The notes under the pieces: model-generated
The model's input: the letters and a program-made list of their open reading frames with translations, nothing else
What the model was told of the DNA's origin: nothing
The model's database searches: none
Part shown: one piece after another, positions 47,540 to 63,791 of the stretch
How the letters are laid out: each line of letters starts with the position of its first letter
How positions within the stretch are numbered: position 1 is the stretch's first letter
NCBI GenBank assembly: GCA_964490105.1
Contig: CAZAZU010000001.1
Location: 498,361-562,360 of the forward strand
Length of the DNA stretch: 64,000 bases
Reading direction: 5' to 3'
Origin: an uncultured Gammaproteobacteria bacterium
GTDB taxonomy: Bacteria; Patescibacteriota; Microgenomatia; Levybacterales; UBA12049
Program-made: the position numbers and the translations under genes

Positions 47540-48244
47540 ATGATGCCTGATTTAAAAAATCAAAAATTACTCATTGTTTCGCCTCATCCTGATGACGAGG
47601 TTCTAGGCTGTGGTGGTCTCATCAAAAAGATTAAAGACCAAGGCGGAGAAGTCTATATTCTTTTCCTTACGGTCGGCGACACTCAGGAATACTCGGCCAA
47701 AGGTGTTTCTAACGGAAACGAAAGAGTTTCTGAAATCGCAAGGGTAGCGAAATTCTTAAAATATGATAATTATCAAATCCTTTTTGAAGGTAATACTTTC
47801 CATTTAAGACTTGATAGTGTTCCTCAGATTGACCTTGTAAGTAAAATTGAAGAATCTCTAAACAGAATAAAGCCAACAATCGTTGCTATGCCTCCCCGTC
47901 AGGATTACAATCAGGACCATAGGGCTGCAGCTCAAGCATTAATTAGCGCCACAAGACCTGCTCCTTCTGATTTTAAACCATTTCAGAAAATGGTTCTAAC
48001 ATATGAATCTGTTCCGGTAGCTAACTGGGCATATTCACAAACAGAAAATCCTAATTTCTATGTTCCATTAACTGAAGACGAATTAGATACCAAGCTTAAA
48101 GCACTTTCTATGTATAAATCACAAGTTAGAAAAGGTGCGCACCCAAGATCCTTAAAATCCATGAAAAATCTTGCAAAATTCAGAGGCATGCAGATAGGTC
48201 AAGAATTTGCAGAAGCGTATATTTGCCACAGAAATGTTCTGTAA
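47540..48244 (+). CDS. PIG-L/LmbE family N-acetylglucosaminyl deacetylase
   Basis: 'LLIVSPHPDDEVLGCGG' (HPDDE zinc motif). 234 aa. Confidence 0.75.
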   Translation: MMPDLKNQKLLIVSPHPDDEVLGCGGLIKKIKDQGGEVYILFLTVGDTQEYSAKGVSNGNERVSEIARVAKFLKYDNYQILFEGNTFHLRLDSVPQIDLVSKIEESLNRIKPTIVAMPPRQDYNQDHRAAAQALISATRPAPSDFKPFQKMVLTYESVPVANWAYSQTENPNFYVPLTEDELDTKLKALSMYKSQVRKGAHPRSLKSMKNLAKFRGMQIGQEFAEAYICHRNVL

Positions 48245-49062
48245 AACATATGAGAGTATCAATCTACCAGCCTCGTTATTTTCCTCAATTGCACTATTTT
48301 AATAGAGCGCTTGAGTCTGATGTTTTTGTGATTCTGGACAGCGCTCAATATACAAAAGCCCTAGTTCACAGCATAAATGGCAGTAAAGAAAGACACAAAT
48401 CATTTCAATCAGATACAGTTATCAAATTCCCGGAAGGCTCCCATTTCCTAACAGTATCAATCAAACATAACGGCCTTCTACCGATAAATCAAACCCAGTT
48501 AGATTATTCACAAGATTGGGCTAGAAAACATGCAGCAACAATTTCGTCGGCATACAGAAAATCGTTTTCATATAATTCTATTTTTCCTCAAATAGAAAAA
48601 CTCCTTAAAAGTCAGTATGAAACATTAGGTGAGCTAAATATTAAAACTTTTCTTTGGGGCTTAGCATGCATCCTAGGCCTAGATTTAACTCCTGATGAAT
48701 TAACAGTCGAAACAATTAATAAACATCTTGAAACCTCTAATTTTAGACTTAAAAAGATAGTATTAGGCTCTGAGTTAGGGGTTGAAAGACCAGACGGTTT
48801 TCAAAAAGGAACAGAGTGGACTGTTGAAATTTGTAAAAAATTAGGAGCTACAGAGTATCTCCACGGAGAAACAGCACAAAATGGATATATGGACGAGGAT
48901 TACTACAAAAACAATGGGATTAGTCTTGTAACTCAAAATTGGAAATGTGAAGAATATGATCAGCAGTTTAATGACAAAACCGGATTTATCCCTAATCTAT
49001 CAATCATAGATTTACTCTTAAATGTTAATCACGAAAAAGTATTAGAAATAATTACAAATTAA
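48223..49062 (+). CDS. WbqC-like family protein
   Basis: 'VSIYQPRYFPQLHYFNRALESDVFVILDSAQYTK' matches the WbqC N-terminal pattern. Confidence 0.6.
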   Translation: MPQKCSVKHMRVSIYQPRYFPQLHYFNRALESDVFVILDSAQYTKALVHSINGSKERHKSFQSDTVIKFPEGSHFLTVSIKHNGLLPINQTQLDYSQDWARKHAATISSAYRKSFSYNSIFPQIEKLLKSQYETLGELNIKTFLWGLACILGLDLTPDELTVETINKHLETSNFRLKKIVLGSELGVERPDGFQKGTEWTVEICKKLGATEYLHGETAQNGYMDEDYYKNNGISLVTQNWKCEEYDQQFNDKTGFIPNLSIIDLLLNVNHEKVLEIITN

Positions 49063-49063
49063 T

Positions 49064-50119
49064 ATGAGTAAAAAAATATTTTTTATCGTTCTAATATTAA
49101 TCCTAAGTGCTTTAATAGCATTTGCCGAAATCGCACAAAAGCCATTAAAAACAATTGGGTGGATTCCATATTGGGATCAAAATGCTGCTACCCAAAGCTT
49201 TAAAGAAAATGTTGATAAGATAGATTACGTTTCTCTTTTCTGGTATAGAATTGATGAGAACGGTAATTTAGGAGCATATGAAGGAGTCGTTGAAGACAAG
49301 TCTATAATTGAATTTGCTCACAAAAATAATGTGAAAGTTCTAGCTCTTATCGCAAACCTGGACGAGTCCGGAGATGGAACATGGGATCATAAAAGAGTCG
49401 ATACTGTTATTGCAACAAAAGAAGCTAGAGAAAAACATATCAGCGAACTAATCGATCTAGTTGAAAAAAATAATTTCGATGGAATTGACATAGATTATGA
49501 ATCTCTGGAAAGTTATCAAAAAGACGATTTCTCATTATTCATTAAAGAGCTTTCTAAGGAACTTCATAAAAGAGATAAAATTCTTGGAGTTGCGATTCAT
49601 CCAAAAACATCTGAAAACAATCCCCAGGAAGACAATGGATCTAGAGCTCAAGATTTAAGAAAAATCGGAAGATATGCCGATCAGCTGTACTTCATGACAT
49701 ATCTTGAACATGGTGCATTTAGTCAGCCTGGACCAATCGGCTCTCTTTCCTGGATGGAAGGAGTCATAGAATATGGAATATATAAAGTGCCTCGCCAAAA
49801 AGCATATCTAGGAATCGGGCTTATGGGAGCGCAATGGACTAAAAATCCTGACGGAACATATAAACCAACAGAAAGTGAAATGTCATTCTTGGATGTTTTA
49901 TCAAAAGTTAATATTTACAAATTAACTCCTATCTGGGATGAAAAATCAAAAACACCTTATCTTACTTTTAATGAGAATGGAGCGGAAAATATTATATGGT
50001 TTGAAAATGCGGAAAGCGTAAAACTTAGAGTAGAACTTGCAAAAAAATATGGGGTTGGCGGAGTCGCACTTTGGAGACTTGGAGAAGATGATGAAAGAAT
50101 TTGGGAGTACTTAAAATAA
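49064..50119 (+). CDS. secreted glycoside hydrolase family 18 domain protein
   Basis: Signal peptide. 'GWIPYWDQ' and the GH18 catalytic motif 'FDGIDIDYESL' (DxxDxDxE). Confidence 0.7.
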   Translation: MSKKIFFIVLILILSALIAFAEIAQKPLKTIGWIPYWDQNAATQSFKENVDKIDYVSLFWYRIDENGNLGAYEGVVEDKSIIEFAHKNNVKVLALIANLDESGDGTWDHKRVDTVIATKEAREKHISELIDLVEKNNFDGIDIDYESLESYQKDDFSLFIKELSKELHKRDKILGVAIHPKTSENNPQEDNGSRAQDLRKIGRYADQLYFMTYLEHGAFSQPGPIGSLSWMEGVIEYGIYKVPRQKAYLGIGLMGAQWTKNPDGTYKPTESEMSFLDVLSKVNIYKLTPIWDEKSKTPYLTFNENGAENIIWFENAESVKLRVELAKKYGVGGVALWRLGEDDERIWEYLK

Positions 50120-51180
50120 TTATGAAAACTATAAAACACAATAAACCATTAGTAGGTAGACAAGAATCTAAAGCGATTAACGATGTAATGAAAAGTGAGT
50201 GGATTATCGCTGATTCAGAAGTTAGAAAATTCGAAAAAACTGTTGCAAAAATGAATAAATTTAAATATGCAGTTGCAGTTAACAGCGGTACTGCTGCGAT
50301 TCATTTAGCTCTCCTTTCGCTTGGCGTTAAAGAGTCTGATGAAGTAATACTATCTTCTTTTACTGTTGCAGACCCACTTAATGCAATAAATTATACAGGC
50401 GCAAAAACAGTTCTAGTAGACATTGAAAAAAATTCTTTTGACATGAATATTGATGAAATAAAAAGAAAAATTACTAAGAAAACAAAAGCAATTATTGTTC
50501 CTCATATGCTGGGTTCGTTTGCAAAAATTGATGAGCTGGAAAATCTTGGAATTCCAATTATCAATGACTGCGCTCAATCAATCGGCGGAATTTATAAAGA
50601 TAAACCAATTGGATCATATGGTGACTTAACTATTTTTTCATTTTATGCGACTAAGTTAATTACCACAGGCCAAGGTGGAATGGTTTTAACAAATAATAAA
50701 AAACGCGCAAAGTTTATGAGAGATACAATCGACTATAATGGCAGGACAAATTATAAAGTTAGATTTAACTACCCTATGACAGACATATCTGCTGCAATGG
50801 GAAATGTTCAGCTAAAAAAACTTAATGATTTTATAAAAAGAAGAAGAGAAATTGCCAAAAGATATAAAGGCGCGATTTCTAATAAAGAAATCTCTACTTT
50901 CCCAAATCTTGATGAAGGCTATTCAAATTTTTATCGTTTCGTACTTAAATTTAATAGTCAGAAAAAAAGAACAGAAGCTAAGAAAATATTTATGAAGAAT
51001 AAAATAACTGCAATTGTTCCAATTAAAGAATATGAACTTTTGTATAACTGTGTAGGGGATAATAAAAAGGATTATCCTAATTCTCTAGAGATGGCTAATA
51101 CTTGCCTATCGATTCCGATTTATCCTGCATTAAGTGAAGCCGAAATTAAAAGAATCATAGATGTATTAAAATCTCTTTAA
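50101..51180 (+). CDS. DegT/DnrJ/EryC1/StrS-family PLP-dependent sugar aminotransferase
   Basis: 'FKYAVAVNSGTAAIHLAL', 'IIVPHMLGS', 'DCAQSIG' and 'SFYATKLITTGQGG' (Lys). Confidence 0.8.
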   Translation: MGVLKIIMKTIKHNKPLVGRQESKAINDVMKSEWIIADSEVRKFEKTVAKMNKFKYAVAVNSGTAAIHLALLSLGVKESDEVILSSFTVADPLNAINYTGAKTVLVDIEKNSFDMNIDEIKRKITKKTKAIIVPHMLGSFAKIDELENLGIPIINDCAQSIGGIYKDKPIGSYGDLTIFSFYATKLITTGQGGMVLTNNKKRAKFMRDTIDYNGRTNYKVRFNYPMTDISAAMGNVQLKKLNDFIKRRREIAKRYKGAISNKEISTFPNLDEGYSNFYRFVLKFNSQKKRTEAKKIFMKNKITAIVPIKEYELLYNCVGDNKKDYPNSLEMANTCLSIPIYPALSEAEIKRIIDVLKSL

Positions 51181-52400
51181 CCTCTTTTTGGACTTGTCCA
51201 AGTCCCGTCAGATTTCTTAAATATTGCCTCTGGAATAGATATAAAAAAGACGATTGTGTCAATAAACCTTAAGAAAACAAATCCAAGTCCTAAGAAAAGC
51301 ATTATTGGTTTTCGCTCTGTTATTGCCACCAATACTGTCATAATATAATCGATTAAAAACACACCGATAAGAATATCAATCAATCTAAATGTTCTGCCGA
51401 TAACAGGAATGGTGACCGGATCAAAGGAATTTAAAATTAGAAGTGTAATTATAAGTGGAATAGTCAAAAAGAATAAACTATAAAAAATAAGTTCTATAAG
51501 AAATGCTCCCATCGTAAGCCATAAAAAACTAGGCCAAATTCCATGTCTAAAAATTGTTTGCCAGTATCCTACGTTCCATCTTCGCAGTTGCTTTATGTAA
51601 TCCTCTAAACTGTATGGATCTTGGTGGGTAGCTTTTATTTCAGGCGCATATATAATCTTTCCAAGCTTCTTCTTCTGAACTTCAAAAGTCATATTAAAGT
51701 CTTCAATAACTAGTCCTGGGGCATCTATTTCTAAGTGCTCTAAAACTCTAGTTCTATAGATACTAAAAGCCCCAGGGATGATATAGCTCGCATTTGCAAC
51801 CTTCCAAGTTTGACCAAATCTAAGTCCCCATTGCATCACTTTCCAGAGCTTTGCTCTATATGAAATTAGGAATAATTCTGAAAGCTTGGTTCTTCCCCAT
51901 CTTGTTTGACCATGCGGACTAACAGCAGCCACATTCTCATCTCTAAAATATTGAAGCGCTAAATGCAGATAGTTAGGATCAATTATACAATCAGCGTCAT
52001 TAATAAGAATTGCCTTGTACGCTTTTAGAAGACCGTATTCACGCATTATATAAACGAGTGCCTTTGCCTTACCTTTATTTGGACGCAAATCCAAACTTCT
52101 AACTCCCATTGAACGGATTATTTCGATAGTTTTATCTGTTGAAAAGTCACTTACTACATATATATTTCTAGGGGGTAAAACCTGAAGAAGCGCTGAGATC
52201 GTTTTTCTTATACTATCTTCTTCGTTGTGCGCTGGAACTATTGCTGCAACTTCTGAAAAATTTATAGGAAGCGGCTCAAGTCTTTTTTCTCGATTTCTTT
52301 TTGAAGATCCAAATTTTTCGAAGATTAAACGAAGAAAACCTACTATTACCCAAAAAGTGAAGTTAAATCCAAGGGTAAAAAAAGCTAGAAACCATACCAC
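51177..52400 (-). CDS. processive family-2 glycosyltransferase (PgaC/IcaA/chitin-synthase-like, QxxRW)
   Basis: N-terminal TM. 'VPAHNEEDSI', 'VVSDFSTDKT', 'INDADCIIDP' and 'QLRRWNVGYWQ', then a C-terminal 4-TM bundle. Confidence 0.7.
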   Translation of the reverse strand: MVWFLAFFTLGFNFTFWVIVGFLRLIFEKFGSSKRNREKRLEPLPINFSEVAAIVPAHNEEDSIRKTISALLQVLPPRNIYVVSDFSTDKTIEIIRSMGVRSLDLRPNKGKAKALVYIMREYGLLKAYKAILINDADCIIDPNYLHLALQYFRDENVAAVSPHGQTRWGRTKLSELFLISYRAKLWKVMQWGLRFGQTWKVANASYIIPGAFSIYRTRVLEHLEIDAPGLVIEDFNMTFEVQKKKLGKIIYAPEIKATHQDPYSLEDYIKQLRRWNVGYWQTIFRHGIWPSFLWLTMGAFLIELIFYSLFFLTIPLIITLLILNSFDPVTIPVIGRTFRLIDILIGVFLIDYIMTVLVAITERKPIMLFLGLGFVFLRFIDTIVFFISIPEAIFKKSDGTWTSPKRG

Positions 52401-53320
52401 TGCGCAGTCCTCCTAATACCTTCCTCTAAGTTAACTTTAGGACTCCACCCAAGCTTTTTCATTTTTGTGAGTGCTGGAAGCCTTCTGTCATGATCATGAT
52501 TTGGTCTTTCAATGAATTTAATTTTAAGATTTTTTTCTGTAATTTTTATTACCATTTTTGCTAAATCAATTATTTTTGTTTCGTTGTCATTTCCCAAGTT
52601 ATATACTTCGCCTTTTTTACCCTTCAATGCAATAGTTATCAAACCTGATACTAAATCATCTACGTAACAAAGTGTTCTTGTTTGAGTTCCCTTGCCCTCC
52701 ACAGTTAGATCACGACCGTTCATGCATTGATTCATGAACCTTGGCATAACTCTTGCGTCACTTCTGCTCATTCCTGGCCCATATGTATTAAATACTCTTG
52801 CGATCCTCGCGTCAACTCCAAAGGCCCTAAAATAGAACATAACTACACTTTCTGCAAATCTTTTTCCCTCTTCATATGTACTTCTGTACCCAGTTGGACT
52901 TACTTTTCCTTCATAATCTTCTGTTTGAGGGAAAACTTCAGGATTTCCGTAAACTTCAGATGAAGACGTAAATACTACCTTTGATTTCGTCTTTCTTGCT
53001 AGTTCCATTACGTTTTTTGTTCCAACTCCAGAAGTAAATAACATTTCTGATCCTAATTTAAGTAAATTATCAACACCAGTTGGACATGCTAGATGAAAAA
53101 TTACGTCAATTTTTTTACTTTCAAGTGATTTTGGAAGGTTTTTAGTAATATCGTGTTTGATGAAAGTGAAATTTTTATTCTTTTTAAGTGTATTTACAGC
53201 TTTATCATTTGAAGTTACAAAATTATCGATTGCGATAACCTGAATGTCTCTTGAGAGAAGAGTACGGCAAAGATTTTGACCTATAAAGCCAGCTCCTCCA
53301 GTGACTAGAACAAGTTTCAT
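52385..53320 (-). CDS. UDP-glucuronate decarboxylase-like SDR (second UXS paralog; possible UDP-GlcNAcA decarboxylase)
   Basis: 'VTGGAGFIGQNL', 'FTSSSEVYGNP' and 'YEEGKRFAE'. It sits directly downstream of the UDP-sugar dehydrogenase with a 4-bp overlap. Confidence 0.7.
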   Translation of the reverse strand: MKLVLVTGGAGFIGQNLCRTLLSRDIQVIAIDNFVTSNDKAVNTLKKNKNFTFIKHDITKNLPKSLESKKIDVIFHLACPTGVDNLLKLGSEMLFTSGVGTKNVMELARKTKSKVVFTSSSEVYGNPEVFPQTEDYEGKVSPTGYRSTYEEGKRFAESVVMFYFRAFGVDARIARVFNTYGPGMSRSDARVMPRFMNQCMNGRDLTVEGKGTQTRTLCYVDDLVSGLITIALKGKKGEVYNLGNDNETKIIDLAKMVIKITEKNLKIKFIERPNHDHDRRLPALTKMKKLGWSPKVNLEEGIRRTAQWYGF

Positions 53321-54636
53321 AGTGAGAAAACGTGAGAGTTGTGATCTGAAATCTTAACTTTTCTGGTATCTAAAATTGGTTTATTAAAGCTGGAAAGCCA
53401 TTCATAGTCAACTGTGCTGTGATTTGTAGTAATAACTAGTAAATCACTTTCAGCAATTGTTTTCTCACTAAGCTCTACTGACTGACCGCCATTAAACTGC
53501 GGGATAAACGGATCATGATATGAAACTTCATACCCACTTTTTTCAAAAAGTTCCCAGATTCTAAGAGCAGGTGATTCTCTGTGGTCATCAATATCTGGCT
53601 TATAAGCAATACCGATTAAAAGTACTTTTTTCTTGTTATTTTGATCTTTTATATGAACTCCATCCTTCAGTTTTGTAAAAACAGAGGCAATTCCATTTTG
53701 TGAATTAACTTTCTTAATACTTGCAGAAATAATTTCTTCAGCTCGTCTTACAACTTTTTGAGGCTGGTTTTCGTTAATTCTTCCTGCTTCTTTAACAAGA
53801 GTTAAGTCAATTCCAAGCTGTTTTGCATCTTCAATTAGATAGTATGGATCTACTGGAATACAGTGTCCCCCGATACCAGGCCCTGGATAGTGAGCCAAGA
53901 ATCCGAAAGGTTTTGTTGCAGCTGCGTCTACGACTTCCCACATGTCTACATTAATTGCCTTTGCATACTGGTGAACTTGATTTACAAGGCTAATATTAAT
54001 CAAACGGAAAGTATTCTCAAAGATTTTCGTGAGCTCTGCTGTCTCAAGAGAACTTACAGGAACTACCCTATCGATGATTTTTTCATAGAATGCGACAACT
54101 GCTTCAAACGAATTTTCTTCCAGTCCTGATACAACTTTTGGAATTTCGTTTAATTTAAATTTGGAGTTTCCCGGATCAACTCTTTCAGGTGAAAACGCTA
54201 AGAAGAATTCTTCTCCAGCCTTTAATCCTGTTTTTTCAAGTATTGGAAGTGCGATTTTTCTAGTAGTTCCTGGAGCAATTGAGCTTTCAATTACAACTAG
54301 TTGACCTTTCCTTAAATGCTCTGATACCTCAGAACACGCTCCTTCAAGCGCTCTAAGATCTGGCATTTTATTCTCATGAACTGGTGTTTGAACACAAATA
54401 AGAACCACATCAGCTTCGGAAATCTTTGTTTTATCGATAGTAGAAGTTAAATTCTTAATCTTAAGATCATTAATTTTTGAAGCTTTTTGAGGGTTTCTCA
54501 CAAAACCTGTTGTCTTAAAACCTGCCGCAGAGGAAAGTTCTGCTAAAGGCATTCCCACATACCCCATTCCGACAATACCAACCTTGGCAGTTTTATCGTT
54601 AATTTTCTTAATTAATTCAGTTTTAAACTTATTCAT
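53317..54636 (-). CDS. UDP-N-acetyl-hexosamine/UDP-sugar 6-dehydrogenase (WecC/TviB/WbpA family)
   Basis: 'VGIVGMGYVGMPLA' and catalytic 'GGHCIPVDP'. 439 aa. The motif set differs from Ugd at 27301. Confidence 0.8.
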   Translation of the reverse strand: MNKFKTELIKKINDKTAKVGIVGMGYVGMPLAELSSAAGFKTTGFVRNPQKASKINDLKIKNLTSTIDKTKISEADVVLICVQTPVHENKMPDLRALEGACSEVSEHLRKGQLVVIESSIAPGTTRKIALPILEKTGLKAGEEFFLAFSPERVDPGNSKFKLNEIPKVVSGLEENSFEAVVAFYEKIIDRVVPVSSLETAELTKIFENTFRLINISLVNQVHQYAKAINVDMWEVVDAAATKPFGFLAHYPGPGIGGHCIPVDPYYLIEDAKQLGIDLTLVKEAGRINENQPQKVVRRAEEIISASIKKVNSQNGIASVFTKLKDGVHIKDQNNKKKVLLIGIAYKPDIDDHRESPALRIWELFEKSGYEVSYHDPFIPQFNGGQSVELSEKTIAESDLLVITTNHSTVDYEWLSSFNKPILDTRKVKISDHNSHVFSL

Positions 54637-54752
54637 ATTATGAGATAAAAAAACAACCCTAATATAAGGGTTGTTAATTATCTTCTACCCTTATATTCAA
54701 TGAGGGCAGAATTACAAAATGCATTATAATATAGGCTTATCAGAATGTCAAG
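54637..54752 (-). promoter_or_regulatory. consensus sigma70 promoter plus attenuator-like leader (hairpin + U7) upstream of dehydrogenase-UXS operon
   Basis: On the minus strand: TTGACA (rc 54746-54751), a 17-nt spacer, and TATAAT (rc 54723-54728). The about 80-nt leader can form three mutually exclusive pairings: 1:2 CCCUC/AAGGG, 2:3 AAGGGU/ACCCUU, and 3:4 AACAACCCU-UAUAUU-AGGGUUGUU. The last is followed by UUUUUUU 14 nt before the ATG. Confidence 0.5.
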
Positions 54753-54841
54753 CGGTGGAATAGTTCTCACACGTTTCTCACATTATTCTCATTCAAATTT
54801 ATTGCTATAGGACTAATAATATAGTATAATACTGCCACATT

Positions 54842-57800
54842 ATGGCAGCTCAAAGAATTGAAAGCACAGGATCACATCCAGAAGCAGATAATCTTCCAAA
54901 TAATGGGTCTCATCTGCAGATTGATCGTGGATTAACTCAACTTGAATTAGGCTTATCAACAGCCCCTGTTCTCGGAGAAAATGGAACCCCAGGAGCAGAA
55001 GATGAAAGAATTAATAGTGGAAAGCGAGAAGAAGTATTACAAGCCTTTGCGCGCCAATTCGAAGCATTTAGAGAGGCTCCTGATACTGTCCTGGAAGACT
55101 GGGAAGCAGCAGAAAGAGGCGAAATGGCTGAAATATTGGACACGGGAAAGGTTGATTTCGCAAATGGAGTAGATTCTTTCAGAGAAAACGGACGCACAAG
55201 AAGACTTCCTATCCAGGCTTTTATGAACTTCGTTGCTGTTAAGGCTGATGAGGATGAGCAAGTTGAAAATGATAGAAGAATTCTTGAAAAATATAGCAGG
55301 TCTCCTATCTCAACTATCAGAGGAGATGGCCAGATCAGCAGACAAACACACAGGCAGTTAGCTGATGAAGCAGCCCAAGCAACCCAGGACAGAAGAAGCG
55401 CAGTAAGAAGAGCCCAAACAGGAGTGCGCTGGTTCTATCCGCCTAAAAATGCAGACATAAACAACACCACTCCTGAAGCTTCGCAACCGCAAGATTTATC
55501 GGGTGCAATGCAAATCTTTGAAGAAGCTCTTCGGAGATATAGACATGCCAACAGTCCGATTGATAAAAAAACGGCAAAAAGAGAACTTGATTTAATCACC
55601 AGGCAAATGGGAGATTTAACAGGGGACACGGCTGCTGTAAAAGAATTCCTAGAGGCGAGAAGAGAAGAAGCACGAAAATCAGGAAAAGCGGATCGAGGAA
55701 CGGCATCCAAACTGGAAATACGAGCATCAAAGTTAAGAATAGAACGAGCAGCAGACAGATTATATGAATTGGAAGATTTAAGAAGTAATGAACCAATTAT
55801 TCTGGGGAATTCACCAAGCTCGGATATATCAGATCGCGGCTCTGACCTTCCAAGCGAAACTGCTGAAGAAATTATAACCACTCCTTGGCTTACTTCAATG
55901 ATTGAAACTCAAGTAAGACAGGATGATGCTCCTTGGGGTAAACCTAAACTACCTGGTAATGTGACAGTAACCACAGAGAATGCTCTCGAAAAAATTAAAA
56001 CTCCACTTAGGCTTTCTGGAGGCTTAAATCCTGGAGAAAAAAAGGGCTATAGCCAACCTCAAGCTTCTCAAATTATTAGAAAAGCTGGAGAAGAACTATA
56101 TCGTAGTTATAAAAAGACATGGGATGAAGTATCGAAATTGAGAGCAGATAGCGATTCTAAGGTTACATCAAAGTCTGATCCTATTACTTCTTCAGCGCAC
56201 GATTTTACACCACCATCTTATACTTCTGTAGATTGGTCTAAAACAGATAATGCGAGAGAGGTATGGGAGGCTCAATTCAGAGAGGCAGTAAAAGCAGAGG
56301 AAAAACTACCTGCGCTACCTATACCCATAAGCGCTGCTGATCAACTTCAAGCTGATGAAGACGCAGAAAGAGCCAGAAAAACTGCGGAAGACGATAAAAG
56401 ACGCGCCGCAAGAACAGCTATTGATGACGCTAGACGTTTAGGACAACCGATTCCAGAAGTAGATGAAAAGGGGTTTTTGGTTGACCCTACCTTAAAACCT
56501 GATGAAGATTTATTTCCTGAGCATGATTACACCCCTCCACCTCCATATGTATCCATTGATTGGTCTCAGACAGAAAAGGAAAGACAAAACTGGGAATTTA
56601 AATTTCAATTATTAAATGACATTGCTAGCTGGGATCAAGGAGATATAGGAAGTGAAGATAGTGGAATTCCCCCCGTCGAAACCGTTCCTCCAGTTGCAGA
56701 AAAAGAGAACGTAAAGTTTAATATTATATTTACATCGCTTGACCCAGCATATGATCAAGAAGCAGAAAAATGGGCAGAACAAAAACTTCAACAAGAACTA
56801 ACTCCAACTAAAGGCAGACTAGGAAAAATTAGAAGTATAAGAAGAGTTGCAGCGACCAGAATCACAGAAGAAGGTAAAAGACTAAAATATACTAAAGCAT
56901 ATAAAGAGACTTTGGTAAAAGCAGGTAATCCATATGCGCAAATCGATATAAAAACAGGAGAAGTAACAGATGCAGATCAGGATAGAGACAAATTTGATGC
57001 ATCAGTTCAGGCCACACTTAGAGGACTTGACATAAACCCAGAGCAGTTCGTTGCAAGAAAAGCAACTATCGATGAAAAATTACAAGAAAAGATTAGTTTC
57101 GAACTATATGGATATGCGGCTGGAAAATTAAGCCCAGCGGAAATTGAGGAAAGATTTGCGAGATTCACTAAAGCTAATTCTGTGGACTTAAGAAAATATT
57201 TCGGAAAGGATTTAGATTCTAGTGATTTTATGGCTGGATTTAATTCAAATTTGATTCAAAAACTTGGAGAAATTAGAGAAGCGATTGATCATGGAGTAAT
57301 AACCCTTGATCAAGTGGACTTTAACGTAGGATTTGCAATTCCAAGATGGGGGACAGAAACTCAGGCAGAACTTACCAGAAGAGATAAATTAATAAAAGGC
57401 GCACAAAAAAGAAGGAAAACTGGAGTTTTAGCGAATCCGCTGGTCTTAGGAGGAGGAGCATCGATAGGAACTAGTTTGGCTTGGGGAGCTGCTGGCTGGG
57501 GAGCTAGATCTGTAGCGCCAGTTGTAGGAATTCTACCTGGAGCATTAATCGGAGGATGGAACGCAAAAGCCAGAAGAAGCTATGATCTAAAAAGAGACAG
57601 AGCAACTTTTGAAAAGGATCAAGCATCAGGAGTTAAGGTTACATCTGATCAACCAAGAAGATTAGCATTGGACAGTTTTTCGAGAAGAAAGACTTCGACT
57701 AGACAGCTTAATTATGGAGTAAGCAACTTAATCAGCCGTGATTTATCAAACAATCCATTTTTATCAGATAAAAGAAAAGAACAAAACGAAAAAGCCCTAC

Positions 57801-59710
57801 AAGCATTAATTAGCAGAATTGCTGAAATAGACGTTAGAAGAAAATTAGGAATTAGCGAGCAAACAGATCATGTAATGTACTCTTCAGAAAAAGTAATCCA
57901 GCAGGAAAAACTTGCACTTGAAGAACTAAGACTAAAAGCCATTGAAGCTGTCAGGTTTTCAGGTATAAGTCATGAAGACTATCAAAGAATCTTAGGTGAA
58001 AAAACAAGAAAATGGGAAAACTTTTTAGCTCGAACTAGTAAGGCACAGGATAAAAAGTTTGATAAATATAGAACTCGTGAAAGCAGAAAAGCATTCGTGG
58101 AAGGAGCTGTTAAGGGAGCAGTTGGAGCAGGTGTAATAGCAGCCGGAACTACTGGAATCAGAATGGCATCTGATGCACTGGGAATCGATGTAGTTGGAGG
58201 AGTAAGAAATATAATTGATGAAAGAATTAGATATATAAGAGGAGAGATAAATGAACTTTCAAGCAAACCACAAGGAGTTCCAAACGAACAACCAGTTAAA
58301 TTAGCAATGGATGGCCACTATTCCAACGGACATCAAGTTTTTGACTCAATGCTAAATATTGATTCAGCAACTGCGACTGATACTGAAGTTGCGGTTTTCG
58401 CACAAGAAGCTCCATTAAATTTTTATGATACAAAATTAGATGGCAAAACAATTAGTATTCCAGAACACACTAGATTAGTCATGGACAGAATTAACGGTGG
58501 GTATGATTTAGTTTCAAGTCGTGATGGCACAACAGTTCTACTTGATGACGTCCGTTGGGAAGAAGGAAAACTAGTTGCTAATCCAAATAGTCTTTGGGCC
58601 GATAAAATCACAGCTGAAACCTCTACAACGCCTGATATGAGAAGAGTTTTGGGAAAAAATGGAGTTTGGAAAGAAATGGCCACGCCGATTAAAGATATTG
58701 ATTGGGATCCGAATGGAACTCCTGGAAAATATGATAAAGATGAATTAGGAATATTTAACAAACGCGATGGAGACGCAGTGGTATTTAGAATTCCTAGTTC
58801 CTCAAATGGATTTTTCTTAAATATAAACGGCGATAGAGTTTGGCTACCAGAAACTAGAGATGGAATCGTAAGGCTTGATCCTGATTCTAAAAAACTCATC
58901 CCTGGAAGACATGACGGAATGACTTATGGAGATGTTGCAAGAATAGCAATTGATCAGGAGGAGCTTAGAAAATATCACGGAAGTCTTCAAACTGAAGTTC
59001 ATACCGAGAGAAGAGAAATATTTAGAGTTGACGCTATCGAAGCGGGAACATTTAGAAATGGTAGAGCTACAATCCATGCAACCATTTTAGGATGTGGTGA
59101 AACTCCAAAAGAAATTAAAATGGGAACAGTTACAAATAGTGTTACTAAAATATTAGCAGGTGAACTTCCCGAACCAGTAGAACCAATTGATCCAACTCCT
59201 GGGCCTACTCAAACATCAAACCCAACAACTACTCCGACTGCTTCACCAGAACCGACAAAATCACCCTGGATAACGCCAAGAACTACTCCGGAGCCAACTC
59301 CTGACCCAACACCAAGGCCTGCTCCTACACCTGAACCAGCTATTCCTACTGGAAGCGGGTTTACATTTGAATGGCCAGACCTAAGTAATATCAACATCCC
59401 GCCAACCATAGCAACTCCAATGGCTAGAAGATATCCATTAGAAAGTGTTTATGCAGCTACAACAAGACCAACTCCAATTTATCCTGCTGTTTTACCGCCT
59501 ACTACTCCGCCATTAGCGTCGACTCCACATGCTAGCCCGAGATTTATGGCTAGAAGATATGGCGATCAGATGAGTCGCGGACTAACAGATGAGGAAAAAG
59601 GGAAAATTGCACTTTATGCTAATGAGGGGAATTCAGATCAAGAAATTGCGAATAAGCTTAATATTCCGCTAAGTCAAGTTCGGCATGTTAGATACGGAAG
59701 AAATAATTAA
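54842..59710 (+). CDS. giant (1622 aa) GC-rich protein with internal repeats, Gly-rich TM segments, Pro/Thr linker and C-terminal LuxR/GerE-type HTH
   Basis: The ORF is continuous with about 45-50 percent GC. Evidence from the sequence:
- Repeats 'DFTPPSYTSVDWSKT...' and 'DYTPPPPYVSIDWSQT...'.
- Gly-rich hydrophobic 'LANPLVLGGGASIGTSLAWGAAGWGA' and 'GAVKGAVGAGVIAAGTTG'.
- Linker 'PTPGPTQTSNPTTTPTASPEPTKSP...'.
- C-terminal 'LTDEEKGKIALYANEGNSDQEIANKLNIPLSQVRHV'.
- TTGCTA-17nt-TATAAT sits 11 nt upstream of the ATG. Confidence 0.6.
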   Translation: MAAQRIESTGSHPEADNLPNNGSHLQIDRGLTQLELGLSTAPVLGENGTPGAEDERINSGKREEVLQAFARQFEAFREAPDTVLEDWEAAERGEMAEILDTGKVDFANGVDSFRENGRTRRLPIQAFMNFVAVKADEDEQVENDRRILEKYSRSPISTIRGDGQISRQTHRQLADEAAQATQDRRSAVRRAQTGVRWFYPPKNADINNTTPEASQPQDLSGAMQIFEEALRRYRHANSPIDKKTAKRELDLITRQMGDLTGDTAAVKEFLEARREEARKSGKADRGTASKLEIRASKLRIERAADRLYELEDLRSNEPIILGNSPSSDISDRGSDLPSETAEEIITTPWLTSMIETQVRQDDAPWGKPKLPGNVTVTTENALEKIKTPLRLSGGLNPGEKKGYSQPQASQIIRKAGEELYRSYKKTWDEVSKLRADSDSKVTSKSDPITSSAHDFTPPSYTSVDWSKTDNAREVWEAQFREAVKAEEKLPALPIPISAADQLQADEDAERARKTAEDDKRRAARTAIDDARRLGQPIPEVDEKGFLVDPTLKPDEDLFPEHDYTPPPPYVSIDWSQTEKERQNWEFKFQLLNDIASWDQGDIGSEDSGIPPVETVPPVAEKENVKFNIIFTSLDPAYDQEAEKWAEQKLQQELTPTKGRLGKIRSIRRVAATRITEEGKRLKYTKAYKETLVKAGNPYAQIDIKTGEVTDADQDRDKFDASVQATLRGLDINPEQFVARKATIDEKLQEKISFELYGYAAGKLSPAEIEERFARFTKANSVDLRKYFGKDLDSSDFMAGFNSNLIQKLGEIREAIDHGVITLDQVDFNVGFAIPRWGTETQAELTRRDKLIKGAQKRRKTGVLANPLVLGGGASIGTSLAWGAAGWGARSVAPVVGILPGALIGGWNAKARRSYDLKRDRATFEKDQASGVKVTSDQPRRLALDSFSRRKTSTRQLNYGVSNLISRDLSNNPFLSDKRKEQNEKALQALISRIAEIDVRRKLGISEQTDHVMYSSEKVIQQEKLALEELRLKAIEAVRFSGISHEDYQRILGEKTRKWENFLARTSKAQDKKFDKYRTRESRKAFVEGAVKGAVGAGVIAAGTTGIRMASDALGIDVVGGVRNIIDERIRYIRGEINELSSKPQGVPNEQPVKLAMDGHYSNGHQVFDSMLNIDSATATDTEVAVFAQEAPLNFYDTKLDGKTISIPEHTRLVMDRINGGYDLVSSRDGTTVLLDDVRWEEGKLVANPNSLWADKITAETSTTPDMRRVLGKNGVWKEMATPIKDIDWDPNGTPGKYDKDELGIFNKRDGDAVVFRIPSSSNGFFLNINGDRVWLPETRDGIVRLDPDSKKLIPGRHDGMTYGDVARIAIDQEELRKYHGSLQTEVHTERREIFRVDAIEAGTFRNGRATIHATILGCGETPKEIKMGTVTNSVTKILAGELPEPVEPIDPTPGPTQTSNPTTTPTASPEPTKSPWITPRTTPEPTPDPTPRPAPTPEPAIPTGSGFTFEWPDLSNINIPPTIATPMARRYPLESVYAATTRPTPIYPAVLPPTTPPLASTPHASPRFMARRYGDQMSRGLTDEEKGKIALYANEGNSDQEIANKLNIPLSQVRHVRYGRNN

Positions 59711-60378
59711 TTATCTTTAATATTTACTTTTGATAATAAAATAATTATCAAATCAATTGCGATTGGAAAAAATAATACCCATATCCCCTTTTTTACTATT
59801 TCCGCAAACTCTTGGGAGTTAAAAAATAAAATAATCGAATCAGGAATCCTCACACCCAAAAAATAACAAACTACAATAACAGTTGCAATTACTGTTAAAA
59901 GAAAAGCTGATCCTTCTAAATCTTTAGAGCTGGAAAACATAGTATTTCCGATTTGAAATACTGCGAAGAATACGAGCACATAATTCCATGGAAAGCCTAT
60001 CATTGATCTGTCTGACAAAAAGTAAAACACAAAAAAAGATATTATTAAAATCCCTACGAAAACCGGTGCGAAGCCAATGATAGCCCGCCTGATAGGATCA
60101 GTTTCTTGAATAGCAACACTTCCCATGATTATCCTATCCCCATCTGGCTCTGGTGTAAAATTTAATCCACTCGTTCTAACCAGCATAGCTTCAGCTACTA
60201 ATAGGTGTGCTAATTCATGAACTATGACTCCGGGAAGAAGAAATAAATGAAAAAGTCTGATTGCTAAACTCTCTCTCCTTGTAACTTTTAAAAATAAGAA
60301 AGAAATTGATCTTATTAACAATTTAGAAAGAAAAAAAAGAAAGATGAATTCTAAAATAAAAATTAAGACGTAAACCAC
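59707..60378 (-). CDS. polytopic membrane protein with HExxH motif (putative intramembrane zinc metalloprotease)
   Basis: 'LLPGVIVHELAHLLVAEAM' sits within a TM region. 223 aa with about 6 TM segments. Confidence 0.4.
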   Translation of the reverse strand: MVYVLIFILEFIFLFFLSKLLIRSISFLFLKVTRRESLAIRLFHLFLLPGVIVHELAHLLVAEAMLVRTSGLNFTPEPDGDRIIMGSVAIQETDPIRRAIIGFAPVFVGILIISFFVFYFLSDRSMIGFPWNYVLVFFAVFQIGNTMFSSSKDLEGSAFLLTVIATVIVVCYFLGVRIPDSIILFFNSQEFAEIVKKGIWVLFFPIAIDLIIILLSKVNIKDN

Positions 60379-60382
60379 ATAT

Positions 60383-61570
60383 TTATCTTAACGTATTTTT
60401 CGAATCTGTGTCAGGAATTTTAAAGTATACCCAAAGAGCAATTGGCATGACAATCAAAATTACCTTGGGATGATATTCATAAACTGGAGAAATTAAAAGA
60501 CTTACAAAAGTAAAAAGGTAAAGATATTCTTGTTTTCCCTTTTCTTTGGCATATAAAAAAATAGAAAGAATTATTGGAATATAAACAGGAAATGTATATC
60601 TAAAAACAGAAACAAAAATATGAAAATAATGATCGCTTGGTAAGAATAAAAAGATAACAAAATTAGATAATCCTATTAATATAAATTTTGTAATTTTACT
60701 AAATTTTCTTTTTTTATAACTTTTGAATAGAATAAAGAATGAAATAAAAATTGAAAAAAACCATATAGAATACTCACCAAATCCAGCGTTAATAAAATTA
60801 ATCGCTCCGCTAAATGAAATAAAGGAAACTTCCCATACCTGAGTGCTTAGTATTTCAAAACCTGATTTTGGAAAAAATAAAAATGACTGCGGATAAAATG
60901 GATTTCCCGTATGGAATAAATTTCGCAAATACCAAAAAAGACCAAATATTAAAAAAGGTAAAAAGAAAAAAGGGAATAATTTAAGATTAAAATTTTTTAA
61001 TATTTTTTTTAAGTAAAAGATTATTAGAATAAAAAAATAAAGCGGGCCGCTGAATTTACTCCCAATCAGCATTCCAGCTGAGGTGCCAATCGCTAAATAA
61101 CGGCTATTTTTCTTTTTCATCCCCTCTAGCAGAAGGAGTGTGAGAGTGAAAAAAACCGCAAGCCAGATATCGATTATCTGCATATTAATCCACCTGAGCA
61201 TAATAGGAAGAGAAGAAATAGCTACGCCAAATACAATCGACAAATTATTCCCCAAGCCTGTTCTTTTACCTAACAAATAACAAATTACAAACAAAAAGAT
61301 AACTCCAATTACATTAAGTAACTGGATTGGAATTTTAAATAAAAGAAGTACCGCGATTAACCCCTCCGAAGCACCTGGAGAATATTTCATAAAAGAAATC
61401 CCATCTATTTTTTCAGGATTAAAAATATTTCCATTTAGAAAAGATTTGGCTATGGGAATATGATAATTAAGACTATCTCCATCAGGTGTAATATTTGTAA
61501 AAGCTAAAAAGGTAAAATAGGTGATTAAATATATGAAGAAAATAAAAATTATTTTTGTGAATTTTTTCAT
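60383..61570 (-). CDS. polytopic membrane protein (about 11 TM), possible GT-C-like glycosyltransferase or polymerase/ligase
   Basis: Very hydrophobic 395-aa ORF next to a GT2 gene. No diagnostic motif. Confidence 0.35.
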   Translation of the reverse strand: MKKFTKIIFIFFIYLITYFTFLAFTNITPDGDSLNYHIPIAKSFLNGNIFNPEKIDGISFMKYSPGASEGLIAVLLLFKIPIQLLNVIGVIFLFVICYLLGKRTGLGNNLSIVFGVAISSLPIMLRWINMQIIDIWLAVFFTLTLLLLEGMKKKNSRYLAIGTSAGMLIGSKFSGPLYFFILIIFYLKKILKNFNLKLFPFFFLPFLIFGLFWYLRNLFHTGNPFYPQSFLFFPKSGFEILSTQVWEVSFISFSGAINFINAGFGEYSIWFFSIFISFFILFKSYKKRKFSKITKFILIGLSNFVIFLFLPSDHYFHIFVSVFRYTFPVYIPIILSIFLYAKEKGKQEYLYLFTFVSLLISPVYEYHPKVILIVMPIALWVYFKIPDTDSKNTLR

Positions 61571-61619
61571 ACATTAAATACGTTCATTGTGGCAATGTTA
61601 ATCAAAACTTAAAGTTATC

Positions 61620-62330
61620 TTAAACATTTTTTATCCTGTAAGTAAATATTATTATTAACATTTTTATTCCTACTATTACCGATCGCATCATGGAACCTGT
61701 AATCTTTGACTTACCGACTCTCTGTCTATAATTAACTGGAGCTTCAATTACCGACAAGCCATTAAGTAATGACAGGACTGTAAATTCTGACAAGAAATAT
61801 GAACCGCCGACGCTGAATTTTGAATTAATTAATTTTAATGATTTTCTATTAATCACTCTAAACGTACATCCACAGTCTGATAACGAGGTTTTAGGTGAAT
61901 AAAGAATTTGCATAATCTTAGCTAAGATTAAATTACCAAATCTTAACGCACCCTTCATATTTGCTTTTTTACCGATATATTTCATATTAGTTCTGGAACC
62001 CATAACCAGATCATATTTATCGGTGTGTTTTAAAAGCTTTAGTAAATCTTTTGCTAAAAAGGTTCCGTCCGGTTCACAAAGAACTATCAAATCCCCTTTC
62101 GCCTCTTTTAAACCTCTTCTTAATGCATAACCATAACCTTGTTTTGTCTCTTTTATAACTTTTGCCCTTTTTAACTTAGCAATCTTACTTGTTTTATCTT
62201 TAGAATTATTATCAATTACTAAAATTTCATCGATAATTTTTAATTTTTTAAAATCTAGAATTGCATTTGCGATATTTTCTTCTTCATTATATGCAGGAAA
62301 AACTACTGAAATTATTTTATTTTTATACAT
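61620..62330 (-). CDS. GT2 polyprenol-phosphate sugar synthase-like glycosyltransferase
   Basis: 'SVVFPAYNEEENI', 'LVIDNNSKDKT' and 'LCEPDGTF' (DxD-like). 236 aa. Confidence 0.8.
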   Translation of the reverse strand: MYKNKIISVVFPAYNEEENIANAILDFKKLKIIDEILVIDNNSKDKTSKIAKLKRAKVIKETKQGYGYALRRGLKEAKGDLIVLCEPDGTFLAKDLLKLLKHTDKYDLVMGSRTNMKYIGKKANMKGALRFGNLILAKIMQILYSPKTSLSDCGCTFRVINRKSLKLINSKFSVGGSYFLSEFTVLSLLNGLSVIEAPVNYRQRVGKSKITGSMMRSVIVGIKMLIIIFTYRIKNV

Positions 62331-62333
62331 TCT

Positions 62334-63791
62334 TTACCAAACAGCCACAAGAACTGATTGAAAAATCAGAACTTGAACAGCTTGCAGCAAGAGGAGCAGG
62401 GTAAATTGCCGATTGGTAAATTTTAGTTTAAATGTTACAAAGTTTGCAACAACAATTACTAAGAGTGGTGCAAATGGCAGCCAAATTCGACCTGTTTCAG
62501 CTCTCACAGTACCGCTAAAATTAACTACAATTAGCATAATGATAAAAGATAAGAAAACTGAGTCAATTTTCCTTAAGCTTTTTGTTTTTTTAAAAGTTTT
62601 TAAAGACTCAAATATAAGATAACCAAACATTATTCCTATTGGAATTCCAGTTAAAAGAATAAAGTCAAACAAATTATAAAAATACCAAGTTAGATGTTCT
62701 CTACCTGCTTGCGCCGCTTCATGGTAAATCATAATTGTTTTTACTGTTTCAATAAAATTAAAACCCACGAAGAATAAAAGAAAGGGGATTAATATAAAAC
62801 CAGATAAAAACGAAATAAAATTTTCTATAACTTTTTTTAAATCTTTTCTATTTTGAATAAATTTGAGAAAAAACAGCATAAAAAAGAAAAATAAAAATGG
62901 AATAAAGGTTAAAGTAAAATATGCACCAAGAAATAAAATTAAACCAGAAAAAAAGAAATATAAATAATCATTTGTTTGATTTCCCTTCAAAAATAAATAC
63001 AAAGATATACATGTAAATAAAGGCATAAAAACATCAATAAGAGGCGTAAATAAAAGAAAGCTAGGAACGAAAATAAATAACACGCTACTTCTAATTGCAG
63101 CTTTTTCTCCGTAAAGAATTTTTGATGATAAATATATCGGAATTATTGAAAGACTTGCTATAAAAGCTATGACAAATCCAGATACCAGAGCATTAAATTT
63201 TTGATACATTTCTAAACCATTCCACAGAAGAGCAACATCAGTATGAGTGGGATTAACGGACAAAATATTAGCGAATAAATGAGAAAAGGGTTTTAGGATA
63301 AATTCTAATAAATAATAAACTAAAACTCCGCCGGGTGGATGAAATCTTGCATACATCGGATAATCATAAAGACTTTGATTATAATTTCTTAGAAAACTAC
63401 CTAAATCAAAAATCTGATTAGATACCGAAAAATATCCACTTATCATGGGATTTATGGTTCTGTGAACCAATACCTCAACACCTGATCTACTGTAATAAAG
63501 AAGGCTTATTTGAAGCAAGAAAGAAAGAATTACAAACACTAATATAGTTTTGTAATTATTAGATTTTCTAGTTTTATTTTCCTTTTTTCTGAATATTAAG
63601 ATAATTAATGTAATTACTCCTAGAGGAGCCCAAACTCGAGAAAGAGTATTTGCGGGCTCATAAGGCCATCTCCAGTCAGGTGGATAAGGAGCAGGTCCTC
63701 TTAAGTAAGGTGAAAAATCAAATGCAATTAAAGCAAAAAAAATAATTGAAATTAATGAAGTAATTATTAAGAATGAAGGCCTCTTAAACAC
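62334..63791 (-). CDS. polytopic membrane protein (about 12 TM), GT-C fold-like, paired with upstream GT2
   Basis: 485 aa with N-terminal 'PYLRGPAPYPPDWRWPYEP' after TM1. The arrangement mirrors the GT2 + ArnT-like pair at 21.7-24.4 kb. Confidence 0.4.
   Translation of the reverse strand: MFKRPSFLIITSLISIIFFALIAFDFSPYLRGPAPYPPDWRWPYEPANTLSRVWAPLGVITLIILIFRKKENKTRKSNNYKTILVFVILSFLLQISLLYYSRSGVEVLVHRTINPMISGYFSVSNQIFDLGSFLRNYNQSLYDYPMYARFHPPGGVLVYYLLEFILKPFSHLFANILSVNPTHTDVALLWNGLEMYQKFNALVSGFVIAFIASLSIIPIYLSSKILYGEKAAIRSSVLFIFVPSFLLFTPLIDVFMPLFTCISLYLFLKGNQTNDYLYFFFSGLILFLGAYFTLTFIPFLFFFFMLFFLKFIQNRKDLKKVIENFISFLSGFILIPFLLFFVGFNFIETVKTIMIYHEAAQAGREHLTWYFYNLFDFILLTGIPIGIMFGYLIFESLKTFKKTKSLRKIDSVFLSFIIMLIVVNFSGTVRAETGRIWLPFAPLLVIVVANFVTFKLKFTNRQFTLLLLLQAVQVLIFQSVLVAVW

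Follow-up and report, generated by a model that had tools for sequence, protein, structure and literature searches.

In the SREBP and ATF6 pathways, as in bacterial anti-sigma pathways, a DNA-binding module is held at the membrane and freed by an enzyme of the site-2 protease (S2P) type. Factors of the SREBP/ATF6 type carry the DNA-binding domain as their main cytoplasmic domain and have unambiguous transmembrane helices, and pro-sigma-K is a membrane-associated rather than a truly transmembrane substrate. Here, we describe a locus that resembles SpoIVFB/pro-sigma-K and RseP/RseA in that a small polytopic protein with an HExxH motif and a downstream N...D pair is encoded beside a candidate substrate. 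The candidate is a giant protein of 1622 amino acids, encoded by one ATG-started open reading frame (ORF) at positions 54842–59710 on the plus strand of the window, by which we mean the whole 64-kb stretch of DNA analyzed (contig CAZAZU010000001.1, positions 498,361 to 562,360). As a potential S2P substrate, it has hydrophobic segments rich in Gly, which destabilize helices, and its end in this lineage bears a helix-turn-helix (HTH); it may also resemble pro-sigma-K in its association with the membrane. Unlike those dedicated S2P substrates, it is a 1622-residue multi-domain protein unrelated to sigma or anti-sigma factors, and no site-1 protease was identified; unlike SREBP/ATF6-type factors, its HTH is a 40-residue terminal appendage found in one small clade, and its anchor is doubtful. 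Profile searches place the giant ORF, as its representative in Levyibacteriota, in a large family of giant modular proteins that is Patescibacteria-specific, unannotated, and previously undescribed. Judged by the resources searched, both this family and its gene module are new.

The family was defined by a profile of residues 620–1440, with the giant protein itself as a seed member. With sequences clustered at 50% identity, an exhaustive hmmsearch at E ≤ 0.001 returned 695 cluster representatives, 473 of which reach E ≤ 1e-10. Patescibacteria proteins of 1000–2900 amino acids make up nearly the whole set; homologues in metagenomes of the candidate phyla radiation (CPR), which an earlier sequence-only reading of this DNA had proposed to look for, are indeed there. 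Many matches span profile positions ~20–800, the shared part being the helical core, often together with the β-domain. Word-indexed searches were unproductive: an N-domain alignment gave no matches, missing its own members, and a diverse seed gave five proteins, apparently because the word index was swamped by compositionally biased words. The sharing of domains is counted below among the ~150–155 best-scoring family sequences, in which P-numbers denote family proteins and L-numbers denote fetched loci. The shared core had no Pfam match in the twelve full-length relatives scanned, eight of which lacked any Pfam match; no solved structural relative of the core was recognized, and PDB sequence searches with the whole giant protein, the N-domain profile, and the core profile returned no match. 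Source annotations read 'hypothetical protein [Patescibacteria group bacterium]' or name the fused modules, and the literature searched, including for DUF5663, Patescibacteria site-2 protease, and large Levyibacteriota proteins, held nothing on the family.

The giant protein follows the architecture common to the family, which consists of a variable N-terminus, a helical core with glycine zippers, a β-domain, a P[FM]A.R.PLE motif, and a lineage-specific C-terminal module (all coordinates below are on the plus strand). An AlphaFold2 (AF2) model of residues 620–1440, built on a 14-sequence alignment, has a mean predicted local distance difference test (pLDDT) score of 72.7, with 80–94 in the helical domains and low confidence in the Gly-rich segments. 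The first part of the family-defining core, delimited by the profile search (res. 620–860; 56699–57421; pLDDT ~80), leads into a Gly/Ala-rich helical hairpin of the glycine-zipper type (res. 861–910; 57422–57571) with basic clusters at its flanks, where small-xxx-small runs cover residues 870–908. The second part of the core (res. 911–1083; 57572–58090; pLDDT 85–94) is the most widely shared segment, present in 148 of 152 proteins, and is followed by a third Gly/Ala-rich segment (res. 1084–1110; 58091–58171) that ends a 60-residue helix. The conserved β-rich domain (res. 1192–1440; 58415–59161; pLDDT 80–90) is common to 65 relatives and gave no match in a structural search. It is followed by a Pro/Thr/Glu-rich linker (res. 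1441–1503; 59162–59350) and by the family-wide motif G.GFTF...P.IA.PMARRYPLE (res. 1504–1534; 59351–59443), recognized by invariant alignment columns, which contains the first MARRY at residue 1527 (PMARRYPLE, res. 1526–1534); a second MARRY (res. 1569–1573; 59546–59560) occurs in the closest relatives only. A P[FM]A.R.PLE motif lies past the β-domain in 50 of 154 family proteins, including those of a distant clade, whose loci it retrieved when used as a search pattern.

Upstream of the core, alignments of relatives reveal a conserved N-domain (res. 46–330; 54977–55831) with the invariant motif RKSGKADRGTA.K.E.R.SK.RIE. Its first half is common to 22 of ~150 relatives, and the domain has no Pfam match and no PDB match by sequence profile. 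Within it, the near-invariant motif RKSGKADRGTASKLEIRASKLRIERA..LYELE.L..NEPI (res. 278–321; 55673–55804) is kept in the orthologue of 31% identity and in the distant relative P0028. The variable region that separates the N-domain from the core contains two 30-residue modules, one beginning DFTPPSYTSVDWSK (res. 454–483; 56201–56290), with similar motifs in P0002 and P0003, and the other beginning DYTPPPPYVSIDWSQ (res. 562–591; 56525–56614). The sequence-only reading had called these modules duplicated; both are present, but they agree at only ~13 of 30 residues, and a self-BLAST at E ≤ 1 does not report the pair. Its other listed features were found on inspection, namely the acidic/Arg-rich helical N-terminal third, the β-rich region, a Pro/Thr/Glu linker of about 60 residues, and two MARRY repeats, and the Gly/Ala-rich segments number three (res. 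862–880, 885–908, and 1084–1106) rather than the two it had counted.

What follows the β-domain and the PLE motif differs between lineages. Pfam assigns a Ser/Thr kinase and PP2C to P0025, GT9 and PP2C/SpoIIE to P0040, and DUF218 or weak GT2 matches to other relatives. Local iterative searches of the ~155 family sequences counted 59 GT2-like, 18 GT9, nine PP2C (eight C-terminal and one N-terminal), and four Pkinase modules, so that about half of these best-scoring proteins end in a cytoplasmic enzyme module. The GT2-like profile matches the PDB GT2 structure 6yv7 (E = 2e-4), and its DAD motif is conserved. In the lineage of the window, an HTH-like tail of ~40 residues replaces the usual C-terminal enzyme, and glycosyltransferase genes adjoin the giant gene instead.

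An ORF identical to the giant ORF is present in the independent Logan assembly of SRR8863434; the giant ORF is therefore not an assembly chimera, a possibility that the sequence-only reading had raised. As that reading had it, the ORF is uninterrupted and stands on the plus strand between minus-strand glycan genes, with UDP-sugar dehydrogenase, epimerase, and GT2 genes on one flank and, on the opposite flank, genes for two membrane proteins (223 and 395 residues), a GT2, and a PMT_2-type protein. The same reading had put its guanine-plus-cytosine (GC) content at 45–50% and judged the gene foreign. We found an overall GC of 0.403, slightly above the comparison value of 0.355, with 500-bp windows spanning 0.36–0.44. 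At third codon positions the ORF looks like its surroundings (GC3 0.232 vs 0.261 ± 0.028 in the other 52 ORFs of the window), whereas GC at second positions is high (GC2 0.452 vs 0.345 ± 0.036). Because only GC2 is raised and GC3 is native, the GC excess reflects a protein rich in Ala, Glu, Arg, Asp, Gly, and Pro rather than foreign DNA.

The four closest relatives of the giant protein are 31–67% identical to it, and all four loci share one gene order: BacA, an MGMT-like gene, an optional glycan cluster, the giant gene, and a convergent gene for a ~223-residue membrane protein. The giant gene is syntenic among housekeeping genes in five related Levyibacteriota genomes, and the closest named genome is a Candidatus Levyibacteriota metagenome-assembled genome (MAG). 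Since GC3 matches the host and both synteny and promoter are conserved, the giant ORF, itself a real gene, is native to its Levyibacteriota (CPR) host and was inherited vertically.

The glycan cluster comprises PIG-L, WbqC, GH18, DegT, GT2, epimerase, and UDP-sugar dehydrogenase genes at 47540–54636 and the 395-residue membrane protein, GT2, and PMT_2 genes at 60383–63791. It is missing from the orthologous locus L004, where the giant gene follows directly on BacA and the MGMT-like gene, and looks like an insertion around the conserved pair formed by the giant gene and the HExxH gene. The polytopic 395-residue protein (60383–61570, minus strand) is encoded between the HExxH gene and the GT2/PMT_2 pair, is conserved in related loci, and has no Pfam match; it may be an unrecognized GT-C or polymerase-like component.

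The gene is preceded by a sigma-70-type promoter, TTGCTA-N17-TATAAT, which a consensus scan placed at 54802–54830 on the plus strand with the ATG 11 nt downstream, as the sequence-only reading had noticed. The element is conserved at all five orthologous loci, including L002, L003, L007, and the distant orthologue L004, and in four of the five the ATG lies 11–13 nt past the −10 element, which predicts an essentially leaderless transcript; L004, the most divergent locus, has a leader of ~50 nt with an AAGGAG site instead. Promoter-like sites occur in the region at chance level (12 found vs 13.5 expected), and it is the phylogenetic conservation of the site that supports the promoter despite this count. 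A Shine-Dalgarno-like 4-mer was found at −22 to −4 in only 10 of the 53 ORFs of the window; weak Shine-Dalgarno usage is therefore normal for this genome, in which it may, along with short leaders, be general.

Immediately downstream, a convergent gene (59707–60378, minus strand) that at its end shares 4 nt with the giant ORF encodes the partner, a 223-residue polytopic membrane protein and putative M50/S2P-like metalloprotease with 4–5 strongly hydrophobic segments (apparent free energy of membrane insertion, ΔGapp, −2.5 to +1.1). Its putative zinc site, HELAH (res. 54–58; 60205–60219, minus strand), lies in a hydrophobic helix and is invariant in ten sequences from both clades, and across these ten H54, E55, H58, N145, and D153 are all invariant, the last two within NTMFSSSKDLEG (res. 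145–156; 59911–59946, minus strand). The N-x7-D spacing of N145 and D153 equals that of the M50 motif NxxPxxxLDG, which provides the third zinc ligand; the Pro of that motif is absent, and the sequence context differs. Peptidase_M50 is the top weak Pfam match in seven of ten partner members at E ≤ 1, the best at E = 1.4e-4 and 21.7 bits. Unlike M50 site-2 proteases, the partner also lacks PDZ and CBS domains. As judged from these motifs, a minimal site-2-protease-like enzyme is a plausible identity for it.

The pairing of the two genes is conserved beyond the Levyibacteriota. Among Levyibacteriota-type loci, the partner is 68–83% identical, the giant protein being far less conserved, and its profile matches the giant-adjacent ORF, downstream and convergent, in five of five distinct loci. 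The distant loci, fetched from metagenomes, show a different arrangement: in five of eight informative loci (L011, L014, L015, L017, and L018) the partner is upstream and divergent (E ~1e-43 to 1e-53). The giant proteins of the two clades that preserve this adjacency share only ~25% identity.

In the distant clade the neighborhood includes further conserved genes. A gene for a small acidic DUF5663 protein (PF18908), on which no literature was found, lies directly upstream of the giant gene in ten of ten distant loci (L011–L019 and L022), with a second DUF5663 copy downstream in L022. Arrays of 2–4 VirB2-like pilin paralogues (PF18895) of type IV secretion systems (T4SS) stand directly upstream of the HExxH/DUF5663/giant block in L011, L013, L017, and L018; these four loci also encode larger proteins that end in a pilin-like domain and, often nearby, an AAA-like protein with a Trans_reg_C winged helix. 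A described system that bears comparison is the Patescibacteria T4SS with its VirB2-like pilin arrays (PMC12102498, PMC10633639), arrays that are reported to be abundant in Microgenomatia (PMC12102498); in the available text of that paper, the giant family is not among the T4SS components covered. Distant members of the family sit directly beside PF18895 pilin genes, whereas DUF5663 and T4SS pilin genes are absent from the window and from the Levyibacteriota loci. In L003 (19759–22603), L004 (17417–24880), and L007 (18269–22240), type IV pilin genes (N_methyl) lie downstream of the giant/HExxH pair at a distance of a few kb, in L004 together with T2SSF and T2SSE genes; the window stops just before the equivalent position.

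The three Gly/Ala-rich segments form continuous small-xxx-small glycine zippers with Kyte-Doolittle means of 1.0–1.3. On the Hessa scale, the best 19-residue windows have ΔGapp values of +4.8 for the hairpin and +6.6 for the third segment; the medians for the family are +4.6 and +4.9. By comparison, a segment of +2.4 or lower is present in every clear membrane protein of the window, and window proteins without one range from +3.5 to +14. By these scales the segments are marginally hydrophobic and do not qualify as confident transmembrane helices, and the description of the protein as membrane-spanning in the sequence-only reading is not borne out. The giant protein has no N-terminal signal peptide, and the hydrophobic segment after the β-domain is nearly absent in the enzyme-fused relatives. 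Since enzymes of cytoplasmic type follow the β-domain with no intervening hydrophobic segment, and no signal peptide precedes it, both termini most likely face the cytoplasm. An external C-terminus with a fourth transmembrane segment in P0040 and P0043 was also considered and dropped, the 'segment' VVLGGAIGDAVISTAYL being the Rossmann β1-α1 of GT9.

At the extreme C-terminus, residues 1580–1618 (59579–59695, plus strand) form an HTH-like tail recognized by AF2, Pfam, and PDB sequence matches. The AF2 model of residues 1136–1622 (five sequences) is poor overall, with a mean pLDDT of 38, and the tail alone is usable; it has three helices (res. 1583–1594, 1599–1606, and 1610–1618; pLDDT 78–85), the second and third joined by a tight turn, and the protein stops four residues after the third. 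A full-length Pfam scan places CENP-B_N, Sigma70_r4, and HTH_23 at residues 1580–1617, all below threshold. When scanned in isolation, the tail exceeds the CENP-B_N cut-off (23.5 vs 21.2 bits) and weakly matches Sigma70_r4, HTH_23, HTH_38, and HTH_28, the first two under their cut-offs; no HTH family was matched consistently by the tails of seven relatives. In the PDB, the tail profile matches sigma region 4, a resolvase HTH, and, at E = 0.002, the ParB HTH, with LuxR-family regulators among the weak matches (E 0.16–1.3). The tail is present in only the six closest of ~150 relatives. Its net charge across these tails is 0 to −4, the recognition helices are not consistently basic, and the third helices are often acidic (e.g., DEDEIKRIL and EEAVLEIK); DNA binding by the tail is therefore uncertain.

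These data modify the LuxR/GerE assignment given in the sequence-only reading: the HTH fold is retained in the AF2 model, and the family is not. Like LuxR/GerE (PF00196), the tail is a short helix-turn-helix with an 'EIA...L.I' pattern in its second helix. Unlike LuxR/GerE, it has three helices rather than four and is not basic, and its weak matches to CENP-B_N, HTH_23, sigma region 4, and the ParB HTH are better. Membership is ruled out by the lack of any GerE match at E ≤ 10, in the whole protein or in the isolated tails of seven relatives, and by the missing fourth helix, which is the C-terminal dimerization helix. The model is that of a generic tri-helical HTH, and the gene's 'LuxR' label should not be propagated.

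Tentatively, we favor the explanation that the giant protein sits at the cytoplasmic face of the membrane and there serves functions related to envelope glycans, as a scaffold or carrier. Its glycine-zipper segments would hold it there with both ends in the cytoplasm, and the paired M50/S2P-like partner would most likely cleave at or near the helix-destabilized Gly-rich segments, releasing or turning over cytoplasmic parts. The idea of cleavage at these segments is drawn by analogy from S2P substrates, among them pro-sigma-K, which associates with the membrane peripherally. The HTH-like tail would serve as an output or docking module, with either DNA or protein as its ligand. A role in glycan metabolism is suggested by the GT2, PMT_2, UDP-sugar dehydrogenase, epimerase, DegT, WbqC, and PIG-L genes around the window gene and by the glycosyltransferases fused to its relatives. 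Several observations weigh against this explanation. The segment ΔGapp values fall inside the non-membrane range, and classical S2P substrates are genuine type II transmembrane helices. Applied to three spans, the positive-inside rule puts the C-terminal 500 residues outside, in conflict with the argument from fused domains. The best M50 score of the partner is under the Pfam gathering threshold of 27.2 bits, a PDB sequence search with the partner profile yields no S2P, and the partner was not found within ±10 kb of the giant gene in three of the eight informative distant loci (L013, L019, and L022). The glycan link draws on the neighborhood and the relatives' fusions, and in the orthologous locus L004 the gene pair occurs without flanking glycan genes.

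Among the alternatives, a membrane-tethered transcription factor appears unlikely. On this reading, cleavage by the S2P-like neighbor would set a C-terminal fragment free, and its HTH would bind DNA to regulate genes such as those of the flanking glycan operons. The proteolytic release proposed in the sequence-only reading gains partial support from the S2P-like neighbor, with its HExxH, N-x7-D, and weak M50 match, which is conserved in two arrangements; the fold of the tail and its generic HTH matches also fit, as do the position of the gene between divergent and convergent glycan operons with conserved promoters and the cytoplasmic C-terminus argued by the relatives' fusions. The charge of the tail and its acidic third helices are at odds with a DNA-binding output, and six of seven relatives' tails have no GerE or other above-threshold HTH match. 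L004, moreover, retains the tail in a locus that lacks the flanking glycan genes. The tail is specific to one clade, whereas the linkage to the protease is older and reaches across the wider family; releasing an HTH therefore cannot be the main purpose of the protease.

We likewise doubt that the giant protein is a soluble or peripheral cytoplasmic scaffold, in which the Gly/Ala segments would be oligomerization zippers and the HExxH neighbor would be linked in some other way, such as through a shared envelope pathway. The insertion energies of the segments, including the family medians, fall among the values of this genome's non-membrane proteins, AF2 confidence is low in these segments, and the partner is missing from three of eight distant loci, all of which agree with such a scaffold. 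It is harder to reconcile with segments that are positionally conserved, flanked by basic residues, and as hydrophobic as 1.7–1.96 (Kyte-Doolittle) in relatives, or with an adjacency to a polytopic membrane protein that outlasts a change of arrangement.

It is improbable that the protein has three true spans and an external C-terminus, with the β-domain, the Pro/Thr stalk, and the tail exposed on the surface for adhesion or host contact, perhaps together with the nearby pilins; the HTH-like tail would then be either no DNA-binding element or a binder of extracellular DNA. Basic clusters precede segments 1 and 3 and follow segment 2, the positive-inside pattern that such a topology predicts, and a Pro/Thr-rich linker and a β-rich domain are typical of exposed proteins. 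The type IV pilin genes near L003, L004, and L007 and the VirB2-like arrays beside distant members, of a kind reported as abundant in Microgenomatia, point the same way. In relatives, however, kinase, PP2C, GT2-like, and GT9 modules, which require ATP or nucleotide sugars, follow the same β-domain and PLE motif with no hydrophobic segment between, and the giant protein combines weakly hydrophobic segments with the lack of a signal peptide.

A broader extension of the protease-release idea is a long shot: the giant family, its M50-like partner, and DUF5663 would form a Patescibacteria-wide protease-gated hub, and in Levyibacteriota a freed HTH fragment would control the flanking glycan operons. 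If true, the hub would link interchangeable outputs in the cytoplasm, whether kinase, PP2C, glycosyltransferase, or HTH, to the envelope, with its glycan synthesis and its VirB2-like or type IV pili, and ultra-small episymbionts would possess an SREBP-like transcription pathway of regulated intramembrane proteolysis built from proteins without characterized relatives.

Phage tape measure proteins are, like the giant protein, very long and mostly helical with internal Gly-rich, weakly hydrophobic segments, and they head its viral Foldseek list, without significance (E = 2.7e-3, TM-score ~0.07). A foreign origin, whether as an island gained by horizontal transfer or as a gene of the phage tape-measure kind, is nevertheless effectively refuted: apart from the slightly raised overall GC there is no codon-level deviation at GC3, chromosomal synteny with housekeeping genes is unbroken in five genomes, no phage genes lie nearby, the sole PHROG match is a sub-significant one to a family of unknown function (E = 0.002), no BFVD structure matches significantly, and no relative was found on viral contigs.

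Other features of the region were noted in passing. The leader of the UDP-sugar dehydrogenase operon (54637–54751, minus strand) starts with a perfect TTGACA-17-TATAAT promoter at 54751–54723, followed by two hairpins, the second of which (54675–54652; AACAACCCTTATATTAGGGTTGTT plus T7) is terminator-like and stops ~15 nt short of the ATG. L002 and L007 retain both the promoter and the hairpin with its U-tract; the leader has no Rfam match at the gathering threshold and, from these elements, is a candidate attenuator or riboswitch-like leader. The gene at 6815–8440 (plus strand, 541 residues), RelA/SpoT-like according to the sequence-only reading, matches no Pfam family at E ≤ 1e-3. The compositional signature that it was said to share with the giant gene holds insofar as both are shifted in GC, but both are native at GC3: with a GC of 0.402 and a GC3 of 0.275, the gene at 6815 is shifted at codon positions 1 and 2 only and is native too. 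Finally, MAGs titled 'uncultured Gammaproteobacteria bacterium' (L008, L009, and L010; contigs of GTDB genomes) carry Levyibacteriota-type giant genes and synteny and are probably mislabeled bins.

For the window itself the message is corrective: the giant gene is native, its 'LuxR' label is not to be propagated, and 'membrane-spanning' is not established by hydrophobicity. Many small Patescibacteria genomes spend 4–9 kb on one gene of this family. Its modularity, the likely cytoplasmic facing of its termini, and its genetic coupling to an M50-like protein, which outside Levyibacteriota extends to DUF5663 and VirB2-like pilin arrays, provide experimental handles on the envelope and host-interaction biology of these bacteria.

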